DNA from: a virus
IMG/VR virus record: IMGVR_UViG_3300035190_001334
Coordinates: 64,001 to 128,000 of that record
DNA length: 64,000 nucleotides
Reading direction: 5' to 3' (one strand)
The translations under genes were made by a program, and so were the position numbers. Shown in pieces: positions 33,397 to 50,028 of this stretch. The notes beneath the pieces were generated by a model. It was not told where the DNA came from. It was given only the letters and a program-made list of their open reading frames with translations, and did no database searches. Numbering within the stretch: position 1 is the first letter of the stretch; each line of letters begins with the position of its first letter.

Positions 33397-33885
33397 TTAC
33401 GCAGTTACGCTGGTTGGTTTGTATAATTCGACAATTTTTGGCAGTAACAGAGCAAGTTTGTCTTTTGGGACATATTGAGACATTTCAACTAAGGCTTGAA
33501 AAAGTGTTACTATACTAGTTCTACACAGTTCCCCGACTTCTTGCAGATTATTCTCAGCACCTCTGGCATTGTCGATAAGGTCAAAGAAATCTAGTTCTTC
33601 GCGCCCTAAGTCTTCTGCAATCATATCAGCTTGGTAGGCAAGTAGTTTTTCGATTAAGCTGTCGTCAACTGAGAACCACTCGCCACGTACTTTGTTAAAT
33701 TGAAAGATGTCGTGCAATGAGGCTTCTTCTTTCTTGCCGCCTTTGAATAGAGACAAAAGAGAAAGTTCTGATGAGTTGCCCATTTGAAGCTGCGAGAGTC
33801 GGGCGAAGGGGCTGTCACTGTAACCAATTTTGATGGTGTTAAGTTGTTTGCAGTGAATAATATACACGTAAGATTGTCTTTTCAT
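33397..33885 (-). CDS. T5orf172/MUG113 GIY-YIG family protein
   Basis: YVYII...IKIGYS..P..RLSQLQ...E..LH...RGEWF. Confidence 0.85.
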   Translation of the reverse strand: MKRQSYVYIIHCKQLNTIKIGYSDSPFARLSQLQMGNSSELSLLSLFKGGKKEEASLHDIFQFNKVRGEWFSVDDSLIEKLLAYQADMIAEDLGREELDFFDLIDNARGAENNLQEVGELCRTSIVTLFQALVEMSQYVPKDKLALLLPKIVELYKPTSVTA

Positions 33886-34562
33886 GGTTTTGTGTAGTAA
33901 ATGGCTCTTGAGGTGTCTTTGTGTTCTGTGTAGCCTAAATCATCCATAATAGATTTAAGCAGCTTCTGGGTGCTGTCTGGGTAGCCTTCACAAGCTTTCT
34001 TGATATCTTTAAGGAAGACGCGGCTACGTTTTTTTGTTGTGTAGGTCGAGAAATAGTCCTCAAGATACTCTTCGACGAAATTAACAAGGATATTGTCTTG
34101 TCTACGCAAAATTGCAAAGTAACGCTTAATACCAGTTAACAGTACTCCGTAAGGTATATGCCCAGAGAAGTAGTTTTGTAAATCTATCGATAAGAATGCT
34201 ATACAGTCGTCTCCATCTTTTATTGGGGAGTTTTTATAGAGTAGTTGTTTATTTTCTGCATCATAGTTAAACTTGTCTAGTAAATAAGGCGCAGTCACAA
34301 AAAACTTAGCTAACTTGGTTTCTGTTACTCTAGTATCTTTAGCACTCTCGATTAACTCACGTAATTGTGCGTTAGTTTGTTCCTGATTTTTCTTTAAGGT
34401 GTCGAAGTTTTTATCGGTTTGTACAAGATAACCTAAAACCACACCTAGAACGTTTTTATAGTTGCTGTCGTTTGCAGTCTCTATAATCGCGTCTATGTCT
34501 ATGGGTCTGGTAGCAAGCGATGTCTCAATTGTATCAGCTTCTATGGGGTTTGCATACTTCAT
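33882..34562 (-). CDS. Hypothetical protein, paralog of 54155-54847
   Basis: Shared ETKLA.FF.TAP.LL..F.YD and GIKRYFAI segments. Confidence 0.75.
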   Translation of the reverse strand: MKYANPIEADTIETSLATRPIDIDAIIETANDSNYKNVLGVVLGYLVQTDKNFDTLKKNQEQTNAQLRELIESAKDTRVTETKLAKFFVTAPYLLDKFNYDAENKQLLYKNSPIKDGDDCIAFLSIDLQNYFSGHIPYGVLLTGIKRYFAILRRQDNILVNFVEEYLEDYFSTYTTKKRSRVFLKDIKKACEGYPDSTQKLLKSIMDDLGYTEHKDTSRAIYYTKP

Positions 34563-35585
34563 ATCTGTCTTTATTACTATTCAATAAGTATAGCATAACC
34601 AATAGCACTAGAAAAACTATGCTGCCTTTTTCTGTTTGAAAACTATTGGTAGTCGAGAAAAAACTAGTGGTATATCGAGTGTTTGCTGCCTATACTTTCA
34701 AATTTGCATATTTATTGAAGTGCCTCAAACGTCGAGGAATCGTTGAATAACCATTGTTTTTGGTGTGCCTTATATTACTACTTCTTCTTCTTCTGGGGGC
34801 AACATCTTGAATTAGCCATGCGGCGATGAGCTAGTACTAACTTCGATATTCATAGTATTATCTAGCTGTTTTATAGTACTTTCTTTGGTAAATTCACGTT
34901 ATGTATGCTTTCTGAGATTTGGCGTAACAGAGGTGTGAGTATGAAAAATGAGAGGGATATGGGTATATTGATGAGTGTGAATATTGATGATAGTCGATAT
35001 ATCGAGGGGGTTGAAGCAAAATGATAATCATTCTCACTCCCAAAAATCTCCCATATATGAGCTACACACGATACAATCCCATTCCATCCCTCACACAAAT
35101 CCCACATTCTATCTCTTAACCCCTATCCTTCCCTAAGACAAATATCACATCTCTCACATAAATATCACTCTTTGCATTGTATAATCCGATACAGTACATT
35201 ATACAACCTATATGCTATAATCGTTTGAGCGATTTTAATTAAGTCACTCATCCTTTTAGATTACTTTCACTTACAAGATTATTATATATGTTTCACTTAT
35301 CTGATTATATAACGACAGCTACCATATGCAATTTGTTGCATAGTCCTAAAATCGATTCTGAGACTAGCAAAATGTCTAATGTGCAAATATACCTGAATGT
35401 ATGTAAACAAGTCTTACAGGTCAATTTAGCGACAGTACAAAAAACCATAAGGAATAACTAACGTAGTGACGCGCACGATACTATATGCTATAACGAAAAT
35501 TACACGACTTTACTTCGTTGTTTACATAACTTTACAATCGATAGTAGCTGAAACCCTTACCTAGAGCCAATCTCGAACCAATTTA

Positions 35586-35623
35586 AAAAAAGTGTTGACA
35601 TTCTAAGCTAACTCCTGTAACTT
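35586..35623 (+). promoter_or_regulatory. Sigma70-type early promoter P1
   Basis: A-tract, TTGACA (35595-35600), 17 bp spacer, TAACTT. Confidence 0.65.
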
Positions 35624-35693
35624 AGTTTACATGAGATACGAGATAAGCAAACGCAAGCAATCAAACGCAAGCAGTAAGCCAATCGTCTCTCCC

Positions 35694-35712
35694 GTACCTT
35701 GAAAATTTCATA
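35694..35712 (+). promoter_or_regulatory. boxA-like antitermination element 1
   Basis: gtaccttgaaaatttcata resembles cyanobacterial rrn boxA GAACCTTGAAAA. Confidence 0.45.
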
Positions 35713-35756
35713 TTTCATCTGACTCGACACAAACGAGTTCGCTAAAAACGAATTTT

Positions 35757-35794
35757 AAAAAAGTGTTGACAACCAAAAAGAAATATGCAAAGCT
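35757..35794 (+). promoter_or_regulatory. Sigma70-type early promoter P2
   Basis: Same aaaaaagtgTTGACA (35766-35771) as P1; weaker -10 (TGc-AAAGCT). Confidence 0.5.
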
Positions 35795-35853
35795 TTAAAG
35801 GTCAAAGCAACTAAAGCTTGTATCTGGGTTCTCCAGCGCTACAGATTTAGCCT

Positions 35854-35872
35854 GTACCATGAAAACCGAATA
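35854..35872 (+). promoter_or_regulatory. boxA-like antitermination element 2
   Basis: gtaccatgaaaaccgaata, at a similar distance from P2 as element 1 is from P1. Confidence 0.45.
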
Positions 35873-35988
35873 ACTACACAAAACCCAGTTTTATTTTTAG
35901 GGTTATCTAATCGCAGTTATCCTGATAGCAAGGGATTGAACGTAAGGCGCTAGATAGGGTATAGCAAGCAACTGCTTAGTTATATCGC

Positions 35989-36236
35989 GTGATTCTGTCG
36001 TATGAGACACAACGTTATCTATAGAGCTTAACCTATAGAATCGTAAGAATAGTTAAGCCTTAGAAAGTTCGCAGTCACCTAAAAACTGCAAAATATCAAT
36101 AAAGACAACGACATACTTAATTTTGTAAACGTAACAACTGCTTAAAGCTTGTGATTGTAAGATTATCACTGACTGTTAAATTAAGACGGTTAAACGAATA
36201 AAACAAGTTAAGTTAGTCTAGTCCTAACTGTGCTGT
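35989..36236 (+). repeat. ~250 nt structured direct repeat, copy 1 (candidate ncRNA)
   Basis: Near-identical to 36683-36934 except for a 41 nt central segment. Confidence 0.85.
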
Positions 36237-36280
36237 AATTCGCTTACGCTCATTTAAAATAACAAAGGAGATAAGACAAA

Positions 36281-36610
36281 ATGATAACTAAAGAGTTATT
36301 AGATAAAGAATACTACTACATAAGAGACTTAGATAAGCTAACTAGCCCTGAGTACTTACAGAATATAAAGTACTACGATTTAGAATATTTTCAAAGAGGC
36401 TATTTTTATCTCTACTTTTCTGACAAAATGAACAATTTGGTTCTAAGTTGGATTAACGATAATCTCGACCCTAAAGGTAATACTGGACACTTTTTAGAAG
36501 TTATTGCTACAGCTTTTGATGCTGTAGGATTACCTATTGGAGAGTATGAACGTGTTTTTACTGATAGTAGAGCGCACGACTTTTTTCTAGATTTGTTTGA
36601 TTTTGAGTAA
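36281..36610 (+). CDS. Hypothetical early protein (cassette 1)
   Basis: RBS aggagataaga; enclosed by a 19 nt inverted repeat. Confidence 0.75.
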   Translation: MITKELLDKEYYYIRDLDKLTSPEYLQNIKYYDLEYFQRGYFYLYFSDKMNNLVLSWINDNLDPKGNTGHFLEVIATAFDAVGLPIGEYERVFTDSRAHDFFLDLFDFE

Positions 36611-36682
36611 CTAAGCTGAACAAATGAACGAAGTAAATACAGCACAGCTAAGACTAGCACTATCGCTAGTTGTTATCGTGAG

Positions 36683-36934
36683 GTGATTCTGTCGTATGAG
36701 ACACAACGTTATCTATAGAGCTTAACCTATAGAACCGTAAGAACAGTTAAGCCTATCTTTTGATAGATATAACCTAACGGCTGGTTAGTAAACCGTTTAA
36801 GACAATGACATACTTAACTTTGTAAACGTAACAACTGCTTAGAGTTTGTGAATGTAAGATTATCATTGACTGTTAAATTAAGACGGTTGAACGAATAAAA
36901 CAGGTTAAGTTTAGTCTAGTCCTAACTGTGCTGT
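36683..36934 (+). repeat. ~250 nt structured direct repeat, copy 2 (candidate ncRNA)
   Basis: Near-identical to 35989-36236 except for a 44 nt central segment. Confidence 0.85.
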
Positions 36935-36967
36935 GAAGCTTATCACTACTATATAGGAGATAAGAAT

Positions 36968-37276
36968 ATGTGTGAAGTTCATAGAAATGGTAAAGCACTG
37001 AAACAAGTTAAAAATCTTGGTTGGTTGCTAAGAAATTGGAAAGATGTAAAAAACTTTGATGTGCGTTTATCAGGTAATAGGTTCCCTAGTGAATATACAT
37101 TAACCGCTTTCTCTGATGATTGGTTTTTTACCACTGACTACGCATCGTTAAGCGTGTTACATACTTGGTTAAATAGACCTGTATTTGTTGGGTTGCCTAT
37201 CAATTGGTTATCTGCTGATAAAGTTAAGATTGGTAGCCTTGAGTATGTAAAATTAAGTCCTGATATCGCATCGTAA
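36968..37276 (+). CDS. Hypothetical early protein (cassette 2)
   Basis: RBS aggagataaga; enclosed by the same inverted repeat. Confidence 0.75.
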   Translation: MCEVHRNGKALKQVKNLGWLLRNWKDVKNFDVRLSGNRFPSEYTLTAFSDDWFFTTDYASLSVLHTWLNRPVFVGLPINWLSADKVKIGSLEYVKLSPDIAS

Positions 37277-37337
37277 CTAAGCTGACAGCACAGCTAAGAC
37301 TAGCACTAACGCTATGTCTATTATCGTGAGGTTAATT

Positions 37338-37472
37338 ATGTATCTCGACATCGTGCCAAGTCAATATAGAGGTTTTTGGTTCTGTCATAACTTCGATGTT
37401 GTTGAGTCACCAAAGTATGTTGATGTTTGTGTTTGGTGTGTAAGGTTGCAAGCGTACTTTAAAAGCTTGTAA
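37338..37472 (+). CDS. Small hypothetical protein (44 aa, not in ORF track)
   Basis: gaggt RBS, MYLDIVPSQY... Confidence 0.4.
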   Translation: MYLDIVPSQYRGFWFCHNFDVVESPKYVDVCVWCVRLQAYFKSL

Positions 37473-37553
37473 CATTAACAAAACACCCTACACCCATTAA
37501 TGAGTCTATGGTAAATATTTAAAATCCCCCAAAAATTTCTGTCTAGCTTCATG

Positions 37554-37611
37554 TAGGTTGATTATTCCTAACAGCATAGTTTTTTACTGTGCTGTCAAGA
37601 GTATTCACCTA
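37554..37611 (+). other. CUA/CAA internal-loop hairpin A
   Basis: ttc-cta-acagcatagt...actgtgctgt-caa-gag. Confidence 0.6.
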
Positions 37612-37663
37612 AAAAGTGTATATCTCTACTAACCGCTAAAACAGTCTATAGGACTGGAATCAA

Positions 37664-38017
37664 ATGAACAAACGTGGGATTATAGCTGAAGGTCTTAATA
37701 GAGGCTACAGCATAGCAAAAAACATCGAACTTGTAGATATTGGTGATTACTGCGATGGTCAATTTTTAGATGAACGTGAAAACGTCAAAATCACATCAGA
37801 CAATTGGCTAGAGTTTCATACTAACTACGCCTATGAATGCGAGTCTAATGACCGTCAATTTTCACCATTTGAGTTCTTGGCTAACGACATCAACGCTACA
37901 GAAGATAATCCAAGGGTTAAATTTGAACCTTGGAGTGTTTTCGATGAAGCAATTTCTCGTGGTATCGCTAAAGCGCTTAAAGAGCGATGGAAGTCTCTAC
38001 AAGTTGACAAAAAGTAG
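37664..38017 (+). CDS. Hypothetical early protein
   Basis: 117 aa ORF with RBS-like element. Confidence 0.7.
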   Translation: MNKRGIIAEGLNRGYSIAKNIELVDIGDYCDGQFLDERENVKITSDNWLEFHTNYAYECESNDRQFSPFEFLANDINATEDNPRVKFEPWSVFDEAISRGIAKALKERWKSLQVDKK

Positions 38018-38108
38018 AGACTAAAACTAATGAAGCTTTAGAAGTGTTAAATCAACTTAAATTTAACTCTACTTGTCTGCTTAGTTCTATAGAACGTGAT
38101 ACAGGCTA

Positions 38109-38172
38109 TTGACTTTTTTCCTAACTGCCTGTAAGCTTTATGTTTATTGGCAGTCAAGAGCAAAGTAGTTAA
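38109..38172 (+). other. CUA/CAA internal-loop hairpin B
   Basis: ttc-cta-actgcc...ggcagt-caa-gag. Confidence 0.6.
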
Positions 38173-38228
38173 CACTTATAGCGCTCTTTTCGCTAACGCT
38201 TAAACTAGAACAACTAGGAATTAATACA

Positions 38229-38750: not shown

Positions 38751-38751
38751 A

Positions 38752-38799
38752 TAGAGTTTTCCTAGCAGTATCCGCTTGGGTATTGCTAAGAGCGCTCTA
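38752..38799 (+). other. CUA/UAA internal-loop hairpin C
   Basis: ttc-cta-gcagtatcc-gctt-gggtattgc-taa-gag. Confidence 0.6.
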
Positions 38800-38850
38800 A
38801 GTGTCTCTTTTCAATTAATCACTTACTGTAAAAACAGGAATTAAAATCTC

Positions 38851-39813
38851 ATGGCAAGAATCAAACGTGTTTTTCAAAATGCTAAGGAATGCATTCATGC
38901 ATGGGCGCAACAGTCCCAAGATGAGGGACGCTCTAGTAATGTATCATTCAGAGCATCTAGCACTGCCCTAGAAGTTGGTGATGTGCTTTACAGCTACGAT
39001 ACTGCTATAGCTGCATTTCGTGAAACCCCTAACGGTGCAAAAGTCGTATTTCTTGACTATTGCTCCCACTCATCTTGCACATCAAAGCATCAAATGGCTA
39101 TACGTCACAGCATTACACAACCTATCTACACTTATGACGATATCCCTCACTGGGTTAGAGATGATGTGAGATACCTTAGCGGTAGACGTGGCTCTAGGCG
39201 TGACAATGCGCCCCACACTGTCAAACCTGAATCTATTTGGCAACAATACAAAGATATCTTTGATGCTCTTGTTGCTACAGTTGGACAAAAGCGCTTTGCA
39301 CGTACATCTTGCGAACGCTTAAACATGGCTAGAGAGTATGAAGCTGAAGCCAATCGCATCAAGCGTTGTTTCAATCTTGATAATTTCCCTGACTTAGAGC
39401 TAGTCATTACTCCTCAAATGCAGGAGTATGTAGAGCTTGCAGAACAAGCTAAAGCAGCAAAAGAAAAACGTGAGAAGGAAAGAATTCAGCGTGACATTGA
39501 ACGTACTGCAATCGACCGTGAAAAATGGCTTACAGGACATTGCAATCGTTACCCTCACAGCTACTCTTTGCCAATTGTTCTACGCCTATCCCCTAGCGAC
39601 TCTGAGCGTGTTGAAACCTCTAGAGGTGCATTTGTACCTGTCAAGGTGTGCGAACGTCTCTATCGTGCATTTAAAGCCCGTCAAATGCCTGATGATGTAC
39701 GAGTTGGTAACTACACTTTGAATGAAGTATCTGAAAACGGCATAACTATCGGTTGCCATAAAATCAGCACTGATGAGCTTGAGAGATTTGCTAAAGTAAT
39801 CGGTCTAGCTTAA
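38851..39813 (+). CDS. Hypothetical phage protein
   Basis: 320 aa; TSKHQ, ETSRGA.VP, IGCHKI motifs; RBS aggaa. Confidence 0.8.
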   Translation: MARIKRVFQNAKECIHAWAQQSQDEGRSSNVSFRASSTALEVGDVLYSYDTAIAAFRETPNGAKVVFLDYCSHSSCTSKHQMAIRHSITQPIYTYDDIPHWVRDDVRYLSGRRGSRRDNAPHTVKPESIWQQYKDIFDALVATVGQKRFARTSCERLNMAREYEAEANRIKRCFNLDNFPDLELVITPQMQEYVELAEQAKAAKEKREKERIQRDIERTAIDREKWLTGHCNRYPHSYSLPIVLRLSPSDSERVETSRGAFVPVKVCERLYRAFKARQMPDDVRVGNYTLNEVSENGITIGCHKISTDELERFAKVIGLA

Positions 39814-39888
39814 CTGTCGAAACCTCACTCGCGACCGTAGGGAGTGAGGTCTTGTCTAGCTGACTACTAGGCAACTGATGAGACAAGT
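39813..39888 (+). ncRNA. Type II hammerhead ribozyme
   Basis: UGUC-GAAA-CCUCACUC/GAGUGAGG-UC-UUGUCUAG/CUAGGCAA-CUGAUGA-GACA: full catalytic core and three stems; predicted cleavage after C39851. Confidence 0.9.
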
Positions 39889-41708: not shown

Positions 41709-41737
41709 ATTTACTCCCAAAGGTATACAAAATAACT

Positions 41738-41794
41738 TGACTTTTCCTATCTGTTCGTGAGAAGCTACCCTTAACGAACAGACAAAAGCAGTCA
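41738..41794 (+). other. CUA/CAA internal-loop hairpin D
   Basis: tgact-tttc-cta-tctgttcgt...acgaacaga-caa-aagc-agtca. Confidence 0.55.
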
Positions 41795-42108
41795 CGCTCT
41801 ACAACAAACTTTTACAATCGGAATATTACGCCATGAAAACATATCAATCACCATTTCATGCAACTTTACCAAAAAGTGAAGCAGACAAAGCTTGCATCGA
41901 AGCTGACTACACGATACATAATCGAGACTTGCCACTATCTCGCCCAACATCAAGGCGCAATTCTTGGAGCTTAATTCCAGCCATCAAATATTAGAGCATC
42001 GTATGGGAGGGTATACCCTTAACTACCCTCTCTTTAATTCGCTCACTACGTCAGTTACGCTCATTCTTTCCACTGACGTTAGTTGCCAACTTTCTCAGGA
42101 AAATAACT

Positions 42109-42294
42109 ATGGAAACTGAAATTATCTACAGGTTGCAAGTCTACCGTGACACATACAACGACTTCAAAGACGCTGGTTTTGATGATTGGCTTGATGAAGC
42201 TGATGCAAAAGATTTTTTAGACCATCAACAGAAAGATTATGAGCATGAGTTATGGAGACTCATTAAAATCACAACTACCTATGAACCTATCTAA
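42109..42294 (+). CDS. Hypothetical protein
   Basis: RBS agga; 61 aa. Confidence 0.6.
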   Translation: METEIIYRLQVYRDTYNDFKDAGFDDWLDEADAKDFLDHQQKDYEHELWRLIKITTTYEPI

Positions 42295-42434
42295 ACTCAC
42301 TCACTGCTATCAACTCTCAATCGCTGAGAGAAGCGTCACCAAGACACGCAACCAAGTTAACCTTGTAAAGATAGCCTCACACCTGCAACAAGTCTCAAAT
42401 CGTCAAATCTTGCACTCTATAGGAGAATATCTCA

Positions 42435-49770: not shown

Positions 49771-50028
49771 TTAATTTAACATAGGAGCTATTGTCAGCAA
49801 CCCCGCACTGAAGTGACGGGGCTTCGAGCCTAAAGCTTGGAGCCATGCTGACCAGCCTAAGTCTTAACTGACTACGTTATTTAGGTCACGACACCTCGGA
49901 ATGCTTGCTAGTTCCCCGCTCTGTCGTTTGTAATTAAACAGTTCTAAGGTCACTGGAACAGTGTTGCAAGCCTAACAAGCCTAGATAACATTGGCGAAGC
50001 AAACATTACTTTTGTAGGCGACACAACC
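49771..50028 (+). ncRNA. omegaRNA (HEARO-type) of IscB; guide ~49771-49792, scaffold from 49793
   Basis: gtcagcaaccccgcactgaagtgacggggctt...gaccagcctaag...ctacgtt...acattggcgaag hallmark segments. Confidence 0.85.

Follow-up and report, generated by a model that had tools for sequence, protein, structure and literature searches.

A two-copy structured RNA module with stems predicted to enclose open reading frames in a freshwater cyanophage related to Pam2 and PA-SR01

The 64,000-nt stretch of DNA analysed here (the window) covers bases 64001-128000 of the 145,466-bp virus record IMGVR_UViG_3300035190_001334. The only deposited phages related to it are the Pseudanabaena phages Pam2 and PA-SR01 and, judged by its sequence, the virus is a ~145-kb freshwater cyanophage of Pseudanabaena type, kin to these two. 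At the head of a rightward operon of small genes, a non-coding scaffold of about 250 nt occurs twice (35989-36236 and 36683-36934; all features are on the + strand unless stated otherwise), and comparison with related phages indicates that it forms a structured RNA. Each module is predicted to consist of a 5′ domain with a pseudoknot, an exchangeable core of type A or B, a 3′ domain and the 5′ arm of a long stem that encloses an open reading frame (ORF), hereafter called a bracket. By analogy with known systems, it is most likely a processing or leader element of phage early transcripts, unusual in that ORFs would be nested in conserved stems with an invariant non-canonical loop. The fuller proposal, in which a modular non-coding early leader or spacer RNA lies between processing stems of the RNase III type and is reshuffled through recombination, has in our judgement an even chance of being correct.

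The original prediction, made from the letters of the window, had described a two-copy repeat with conserved blocks around unrelated cores, and both repeat comparison and a search of the whole genome, which found no other copy, bear this out. Block 1 (35989-36060 versus 36683-36754) is 97% identical over 72 nt, with the two differences already counted. Block 2 is 93% identical over 113 nt (36102-36214 versus 36799-36911), and its end is 100% identical over 24 nt (36213-36236 versus 36911-36934), offset by a 1-nt indel. The cores between them (36061-36101 versus 36755-36798) do not align except for a common ACCTAA, and the hairpin foreseen in each was recovered, as one hairpin in type A and two (H3 and H4) in type B. 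A coding function of the repeat was ruled out, since neither the two copies nor any homologue leaves one of the six reading frames open.

Homologues were retrieved with a neighbouring protein and short DNA patterns (four in viral contigs, one in metagenome contigs) from IMG/VR and Joint Genome Institute metagenome contigs, yielding 10 viral and 2 metagenome contigs, all within one clade; none was found outside this clade among the viral contigs, metagenome contigs and prokaryote genomes searched. Two candidates, L018 and the prokaryote genome contig L021, were discarded as chance 20-mer matches. The full module is present in L016, L014/L019, L015 and L011, and L020 carries the 5′ domain up to its contig end, while the 3′ domain taken alone is found in every relative, Pam2 and PA-SR01 included; the region is not taken up in the PA-SR01 and Pam papers. 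A search with the Rfam 15 families, which include HEARO/omega RNA, riboswitches, ribozymes, ROOL, GOLLD and group I/II introns, found none at its gathering score and none at E-values up to 10 in the region 35400-37800, the best match, to group-II-D1D4-7 (16.9 bits against a gathering score of 34, E-value 1.3), being taken as chance. ARAGORN, which relies on cloverleaf detection, found neither tRNA nor tmRNA genes in the window. The earlier description of the repeat as an undescribed RNA, distinct from any tRNA, agrees with these searches.

The 5′ domain corresponds to block 1. In copy 1 (35989-36060) it is predicted to contain hairpins H1 (35996-35999/36006-36009) and H2 (36018-36024/36033-36039) and a pseudoknot between 36026-36032 and 36052-36058, with a conserved 12-nt A-rich loop at 36040-36051; in copy 2 (36683-36754) the same elements lie at 36690-36693/36700-36703 (H1), 36712-36718/36727-36733 (H2) and 36720-36726/36746-36752 (pseudoknot). 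The geometry is that of a classic H-type pseudoknot, with two helices of 7 bp, a 1-nt first loop and the 12-nt A-rich third loop. In a seven-sequence alignment, 98% of the cells of H2 and the pseudoknot are paired and three pairs are compensatory, against 24-52% paired in slid controls. The last pseudoknot pair is C-G in three sequences, U-G in two and U-A in two, the H2 stem of relatives reads UCUAUC/GGUAGA or UCUAUC/GAUAGA, and the wobble intermediates pair only in the + strand read as RNA. This covariation supports the tctatag/ctataga stem and the gcttaac/gttaagc pseudoknot proposed from the window alone. A long-range tgtcgt/a(c/t)gaca stem proposed with them was rejected: relatives do not keep the tgtcgt/acgaca pairing, and keep instead the local H1 hairpin with differing sequences (UGUC/GACA; GUCAU/AUGAC; GCUC/GGGC closing a UACG tetraloop, as read from the alignments). 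On this comparative evidence, the 5′ domain is a structured RNA of the + strand. A natural variant, L016:6880-6943, is devoid of H1 and of the 5′ half of H2, with an apparent deletion between TAGATAG and TCTATAG.

In copy 1, the 3′ domain (36100-36236) is modelled with a closing helix (36116-36122/36206-36212), a hairpin (36151-36155/36165-36169) with a UGUAAGAUU loop and a second hairpin (36170-36175/36187-36192), and it ends in the 5′ bracket arm (36218-36236); the corresponding closing helix and arm of copy 2 (36797-36934) are at 36813-36819/36903-36909 and 36916-36934. Independent single-sequence folds gave one architecture for 13 instances, with the closing helix, inner helices, a hairpin with a UGUAAKAYU loop and a variable hairpin. 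When 173 kb was searched with a covariance model (R1) built from five Pam2-like sequences, the convincing matches were precisely these 13 instances, which lie on 12 contigs, Pam2 and PA-SR01 among them; copy 1 scored 51 bits (E-value 9e-9) and copy 2 45.9 bits (E-value 1e-7). In the resulting alignment, which was fitted to the model structure and so favours the model, pairing holds in 91.4% of cells, and 19 of the 31 pairs are compensatory, with changes on both sides; none of 500 shuffles reached the observed values, and slid controls were 25-39% paired. The raw alignment (MAFFT and RNAalifold) recovered one hairpin only, and the model-based alignment was needed. The closing helix, ACUUAAC/GUUAAGU, is swapped wholesale for UAGCUC/GAGCUA or UAACUC/GAGUUA in one subgroup. 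It is the acttaa(t/c)/gttaagt stem of the original prediction, which is thereby upheld; compensatory changes on the + strand are seen in both domains. The gactgtt/gacggtt pairing corresponds to the variable hairpin, which the model places at 36170-36175/36187-36192. The 3′ domain is thus modelled as a closing helix with a three-way junction, a structured RNA again of the + strand. The junction at its start, AAGACAAUGAC (36797-36830 in the window; also in L009, L016 and Pam2), resembles the start context of the bracketed ORFs, GAUAAGACAAUG, and in some phages opens a mini-ORF of 3-6 codons devoid of a Shine-Dalgarno sequence; this junction may be a scar left by an earlier cassette.

Each copy ends in CTAGTCCTAACTGTGCTGT, and the complement, ACAGCACAGCTAAGACTAG, lies beyond the next ORF. 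Bracket 1 encloses ORF A (36281-36610, 109 amino acids), and its 3′ arm (36635-36657) pairs with 36218-36240 over 23 nt that are 87% complementary (-32.4 kcal/mol). Bracket 2 encloses ORF B (36968-37276, 102 amino acids), and its 3′ arm (37285-37303) pairs with 36916-36934, the duplex reaching -37.7 kcal/mol with an AGCUUA/UAAGCU extension. ORFs A and B belong to no known family, with no match in Pfam or PHROG and, for ORF B, which has a homologue in L010, no usable Atlas match; they share no similarity, which rules them out as diverged duplicates. Relatives carry the same bracket (f1) together with a second one (f2) between the 5′ and 3′ domains, and one relative has a third; the duplexes are predicted to span 26-37 bp, with energies from -30 to -48 kcal/mol. 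Across phages, f1 holds at least seven unrelated ORFs and is empty in Pam2 and PA-SR01; f2, vacant in L015 and PA-SR01, holds five ORF families elsewhere. The 3′ domain precedes the f1 bracket in 12 of the 12 related contigs examined, whatever the cargo, even none. The structured segment is independent of any particular ORF and, because it is kept whatever the cargo, its role appears tied to the transcript itself rather than to the regulation of one gene.

That bracket partners pair across the ORF is indicated by L010, L012 and L017, where the inner stem of the upstream f2 bracket is changed on both strands to ACUGCGAUGU/ACAUCGCAG, by two compensatory pairs, while the adjacent f1 keeps the standard ACUGUGCUGU/ACAGCACAG. 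A different pairing, around scaffold 2 (36639-36657 with 36916-36934), is allowed by the sequence and used by the minimum free energy fold; it was rejected given the partner specificity across the ORF seen in relatives. Bracket positions that are not Watson-Crick are G-U on the + strand, except for two appositions and one extra A.C in L012. The two appositions, C.A and A.C, flank two A-U pairs and are found in 19 of the 19 ORF-enclosing brackets listed, which span three bracket families. The same internal loop (5′ CUA / 3′ YAA) is present in simple intergenic hairpins at 37554, 38111, 38752 and 41738. The first, a bracket-type hairpin at 37554-37612 with an inner stem at 37571-37580/37586-37595 and the CUA/CAA internal loop, is kept in L016. 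As a family, these hairpins (37554-37612, 38100-38180, 38751-38800 and 41738-41795) share a U-rich outer stem, CUA, a variable inner stem-loop, YAA and a GAG outer stem. After each 3′ arm (36658-36682 and 37304-37338) there is also a small conserved hairpin, CUAGC-ACUAUC-GCUAG, in competition with the outer stem of the bracket. Next comes UUAUCGUGAGGU, the ribosome-binding site (RBS) region of a 52-amino-acid ORF at 37339 and also the start junction of copy 2; here lies a likely crossover point for the tandem module.

The swapped cores were the starting point of the interpretation that a constant scaffold with a variable insert forms a guide or decoy RNA, acting in trans by presenting a variable segment of 41-44 nt that would pair with a target in host or phage, or imitate an RNA of the host so as to titrate a factor. 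The type A core (36061-36101) has a GCAGU/ACUGC hairpin (36071-36075/36085-36089) with the loop CACCUAAAA, and is carried by copy 1 and L016; the 14-nt motif of this loop is found again at 37605-37618. The type B core (36755-36798), with H3 (36753-36757/36762-36766), the ACCUAA motif and H4 (36776-36780/36793-36797), is carried by copy 2, L014/L019, L015, L011 and L020, the last having no H3, and shows compensatory changes in its pairing (CUAUC/GAUAG versus CUAGC/GCUAG; AACGG/CCGUU versus CGAUG/CAUCG). The swapped core thus appears, from these comparisons, to be a choice between two conserved hairpin modules and not a hypervariable segment. It is true that two copies with near-identical flanks differ in their centres, that the RNA appears real and structured, and that a bona fide guide scaffold exists elsewhere in the window, a HEARO element (IscB omega RNA) at 49793-50009 that matches the full-length model with 165 bits, such systems thus occurring in this phage. 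However, there are only two core types, each conserved in other phages and internally paired, and neither core has a match or complement of at least 13 nt elsewhere in the phage genome, where only chance-level 11-12-mers occur, and no freely differing unstructured segment with a target match was found there. What relatives gain or lose is whole hairpins or ORF cassettes; an unstructured spacer is not exchanged. The element has no nuclease, recombinase or effector gene at its side, be it a Cas, TnpB/IscB or IS110 recombinase gene, and the neighbouring ORFs, which match no Pfam or PHROG family, differ between phages. The scaffold resembles no guide family, and HEARO is unrelated to it in sequence, as the original prediction had already said of the omegaRNA. 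We thus retain its undescribed structured non-coding phage RNA, on the absence of Rfam and tRNA matches and on the covariation, and consider a guide or decoy function very improbable.

The position of the scaffold bears on when it would be made. Leftward genes stop at 34562 and a series of small rightward ORFs then starts, after about 1.7 kb free of ORFs whose layout, with a pair of A-tract and TTGACA elements, is likewise present in Pam2 and PA-SR01. A first promoter-like element, P1 (35586-35623), has an A-tract, TTGACA (35595-35600), a 17-nt spacer and TAACTT (35618-35623); a second, P2 (35757-35794), has an A-tract, TTGACA (35766-35771) and a weak -10 box, AAAGCT. They form a direct repeat pair 171 bp apart, each with a perfect TTGACA, and their -35 and -10 boxes are kept in L011 and L017; P1 did not pass a strict consensus promoter scan. 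The scaffold lies 220-390 nt downstream of these elements and at the head of the operon, which makes its early expression plausible. The unusual -10 boxes of the tandem elements (TAACTT; NAAGCT) are conserved among relatives, in which a motif, GUACCUUGAAAAYUGAAUA, recurs downstream of them.

This long untranslated leader downstream of tandem promoter-like elements, its classic pseudoknot with a conserved A-rich loop, and the constant place of the 3′ domain just upstream of the first bracket would all suit a leader acting in cis on transcription or translation, such as a put- or EAR-like antiterminator, a protein operator or a riboswitch. The put element of phage HK022 likewise comes in two copies. 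Yet the RNA is kept in Pam2 and PA-SR01 with an empty downstream bracket and precedes at least seven unrelated ORFs elsewhere, so that it is not tied to one gene product. It also ends about 45 nt ahead of the start codon with no overlap of the RBS, it matches no riboswitch or leader family, and no convincing intrinsic terminator was found on the + strand between 35.4 and 41 kb on which an antiterminator could act downstream. We consider such a cis-acting leader unlikely.

In the processing proposal that we favour, host RNA polymerase would produce one long early RNA from the tandem upstream promoter-like elements, in line with the lack of a convincing + strand terminator between 35.4 and 41 kb, and the bracket stems, together with the intergenic hairpins with the C.A/A.C loop, would be sites of double-strand-specific processing, most likely by host RNase III. 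Cleavage would set free both the structured segment, as a separate RNA, and the mRNAs of the ORFs, whose ends would be protected; the segment may act after its release or merely serve as a platform for folding or processing. The whole module (structured RNA, bracket and ORF) would have been added in tandem as the shared flanks recombined, which would account for the different cores, blocks 1 and 2 being homogenised afterwards, and the same flanks would allow modules to be shuffled by homologous recombination, as the PeSL (promoter-early stem-loop) repeats of T4-type phages do (PMC2839356).

The closest precedents are the T7 early precursor, which is cut at five RNase III sites (PMC4858673), and the rRNAs, which are excised from flanking duplexes, cyanobacteria having several RNase III enzymes (PMC8708148). 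As in these systems, repeated and sequence-related stems with internal loops stand between cistrons, here on a putative early transcript of the host polymerase; the product to be excised would lie between the two duplex strands, an arrangement also seen in rRNA operons. The stems, 26-37 bp of Watson-Crick and G-U pairs, exceed the roughly two helical turns expected of an RNase III signal and fall within the range of its substrates, which makes them candidate cleavage sites. Unlike T7 sites, which are local hairpins, the stems here contain protein-coding ORFs; no RNase III signal with the C.A/A.C loop motif has been described, and the covarying RNA of ~250 nt that precedes the stem has no counterpart in T7.

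Several observations weigh against this proposal. No RNase III encoded by the phage was found. The fold of copy 1 is no more stable than its shuffles (z -0.13), that of copy 2 with its flanking arms reaching z -3.28; because this thermodynamic support is weak by itself, the evidence for structure is comparative, and the comparison has its own limits. The paired fraction of the 3′ domain profits from its model-fitted alignment, and the inner helices of this domain are not clearly recovered in the two window copies. Since only about 12 contigs of a single clade make up the family, some of its covariation may stem from a few events. The fold also seems partly dispensable, since L016 has no hairpin H1, and a natural variant, L011:10364-10498 (- strand), has lost two helices of the 3′ domain in a deletion, namely the 5′ strand of the inner helix and the hairpin with a UGAAAUAYC loop.

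The exchange of ORFs calls for comparison with the PeSLs (PMC2839356; PMC4122927), conserved intergenic repeats that flank small non-essential early ORFs in a hyperplastic region, and between which module shuffling occurs by homologous recombination. As with PeSLs, related phages differ here by the insertion, deletion or replacement of ORFs between repeats. The scaffold could thus be a DNA linker, its blocks kept mainly as patches of homology for ORF shuffling among co-infecting phages, with RNA folding incidental. The PeSL precedent (PMC2839356) speaks for this, as do the swapping of ORFs from start to stop codon between conserved flanks, the empty sites and the mosaic scaffolds, for example that of L016, in which block 1 is like that of copy 2, the core is of type A and block 2 is like that of L014. 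Moreover, no relative comes as close to either window copy as the other copy does, a likeness that suggests gene conversion or the recent addition of the module in tandem. However, compensatory changes and the tolerance of G-U on one strand argue for selection on RNA pairing, and the invariant C.A/A.C appositions would be meaningless for recombination. PeSLs consist of a promoter and a terminator within about 50-70 bp, whereas the repeat here is larger and includes the covarying RNA, and the two halves of one stem bracket an ORF. No promoter-like site was found on the + strand of 35989-36236 or 36683-36934, a strong sigma-70 promoter being expected of each PeSL repeat, and neither the brackets nor the intergenic hairpins at 37554, 38100, 38751 and 41738 end in the U-tail of a terminator stem-loop. 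A pure DNA linker is in our view quite unlikely; recombination between the flanks is compatible with the processing proposal as a consequence and not as the primary function. A dedicated system of DNA mobility is not suggested either, since the 145-kb genome has no match to a tyrosine recombinase (PF00589), as expected for integron attC sites, or to a Y1 transposase (PF01797), as expected for hairpin elements derived from IS200/IS605 (PATE).

Large structured RNAs of phages offer another comparison. Like ROOL and GOLLD (PMC12286853), the element is a phage-borne, multi-helix RNA supported by covariation and has no assigned function; like group I/II introns with ORFs in peripheral loops, it tolerates ORFs only at hairpin tips, which suggests that the fold is under selection. 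Unlike all of these, it is much smaller, with ~250 nt per module and ~500-650 nt in the whole leader, it is limited to one small phage clade, and there is no match to them in sequence or structure; the scaffold also has no exon context or ribozyme core. The whole ~500-650-nt leader might be an ornate stand-alone RNA that, once excised, has its own function and, in the same joint reading, a landing platform for gene cassettes that carry their own inner stem (ACUGUGCUGU...ACAGCACAG) and are exchanged between hairpin tips. We see this combination as a slender prospect. If true, the leader might, for instance, assemble with a host factor or titrate it at the start of infection, and the platform would represent a structure-defined exchange of gene cassettes with no recombinase of a known family.

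Early gene expression is little known in freshwater cyanophages, and the processing proposal offers a concrete, testable layout, that of a long structured leader followed by unrelated accessory ORFs, each within a conserved double-stranded bracket. If the brackets are processing sites, their motif would be a new one by which an RNA nuclease, cyanobacterial or directed by the phage, recognises its sites, and they would explain how discrete messages arise from one long early RNA in a host that is not known to possess Rho. The swapping of ORFs from start to stop codon in identical brackets would mark an exchange hotspot for accessory early genes, and as such genes often serve host take-over or anti-defence, the brackets might become a handle for searching them. 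The covarying pseudoknot and three-way-junction domains would constitute an uncatalogued RNA family, and the element is carried by two cultured phages, Pam2 and PA-SR01.

Other features of the surrounding region were recorded. Between two early ORFs of the same operon, positions 39813-39888 contain what looks by eye like a complete type II hammerhead core (GAAA, a 9-bp stem III ending in GUC, an 8-bp stem I hairpin, CUGAUGA and stem II); no Rfam hammerhead matched a 141-nt slice, even at E-values up to 10. If real, this core would be a further RNA-processing device in the operon. Further downstream, about 725 nt in mid-operon (41709-42434) have no ORF of at least 70 amino acids and start with a CUA/CAA hairpin. 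To the left, the ORF-free region adjoins a gene for a GIY-YIG/T5orf172-type nuclease (33397-33885, - strand) and a conserved 226-amino-acid ORF of no known family (33882-34562, - strand), both of which keep this position in Pam2 and PA-SR01.

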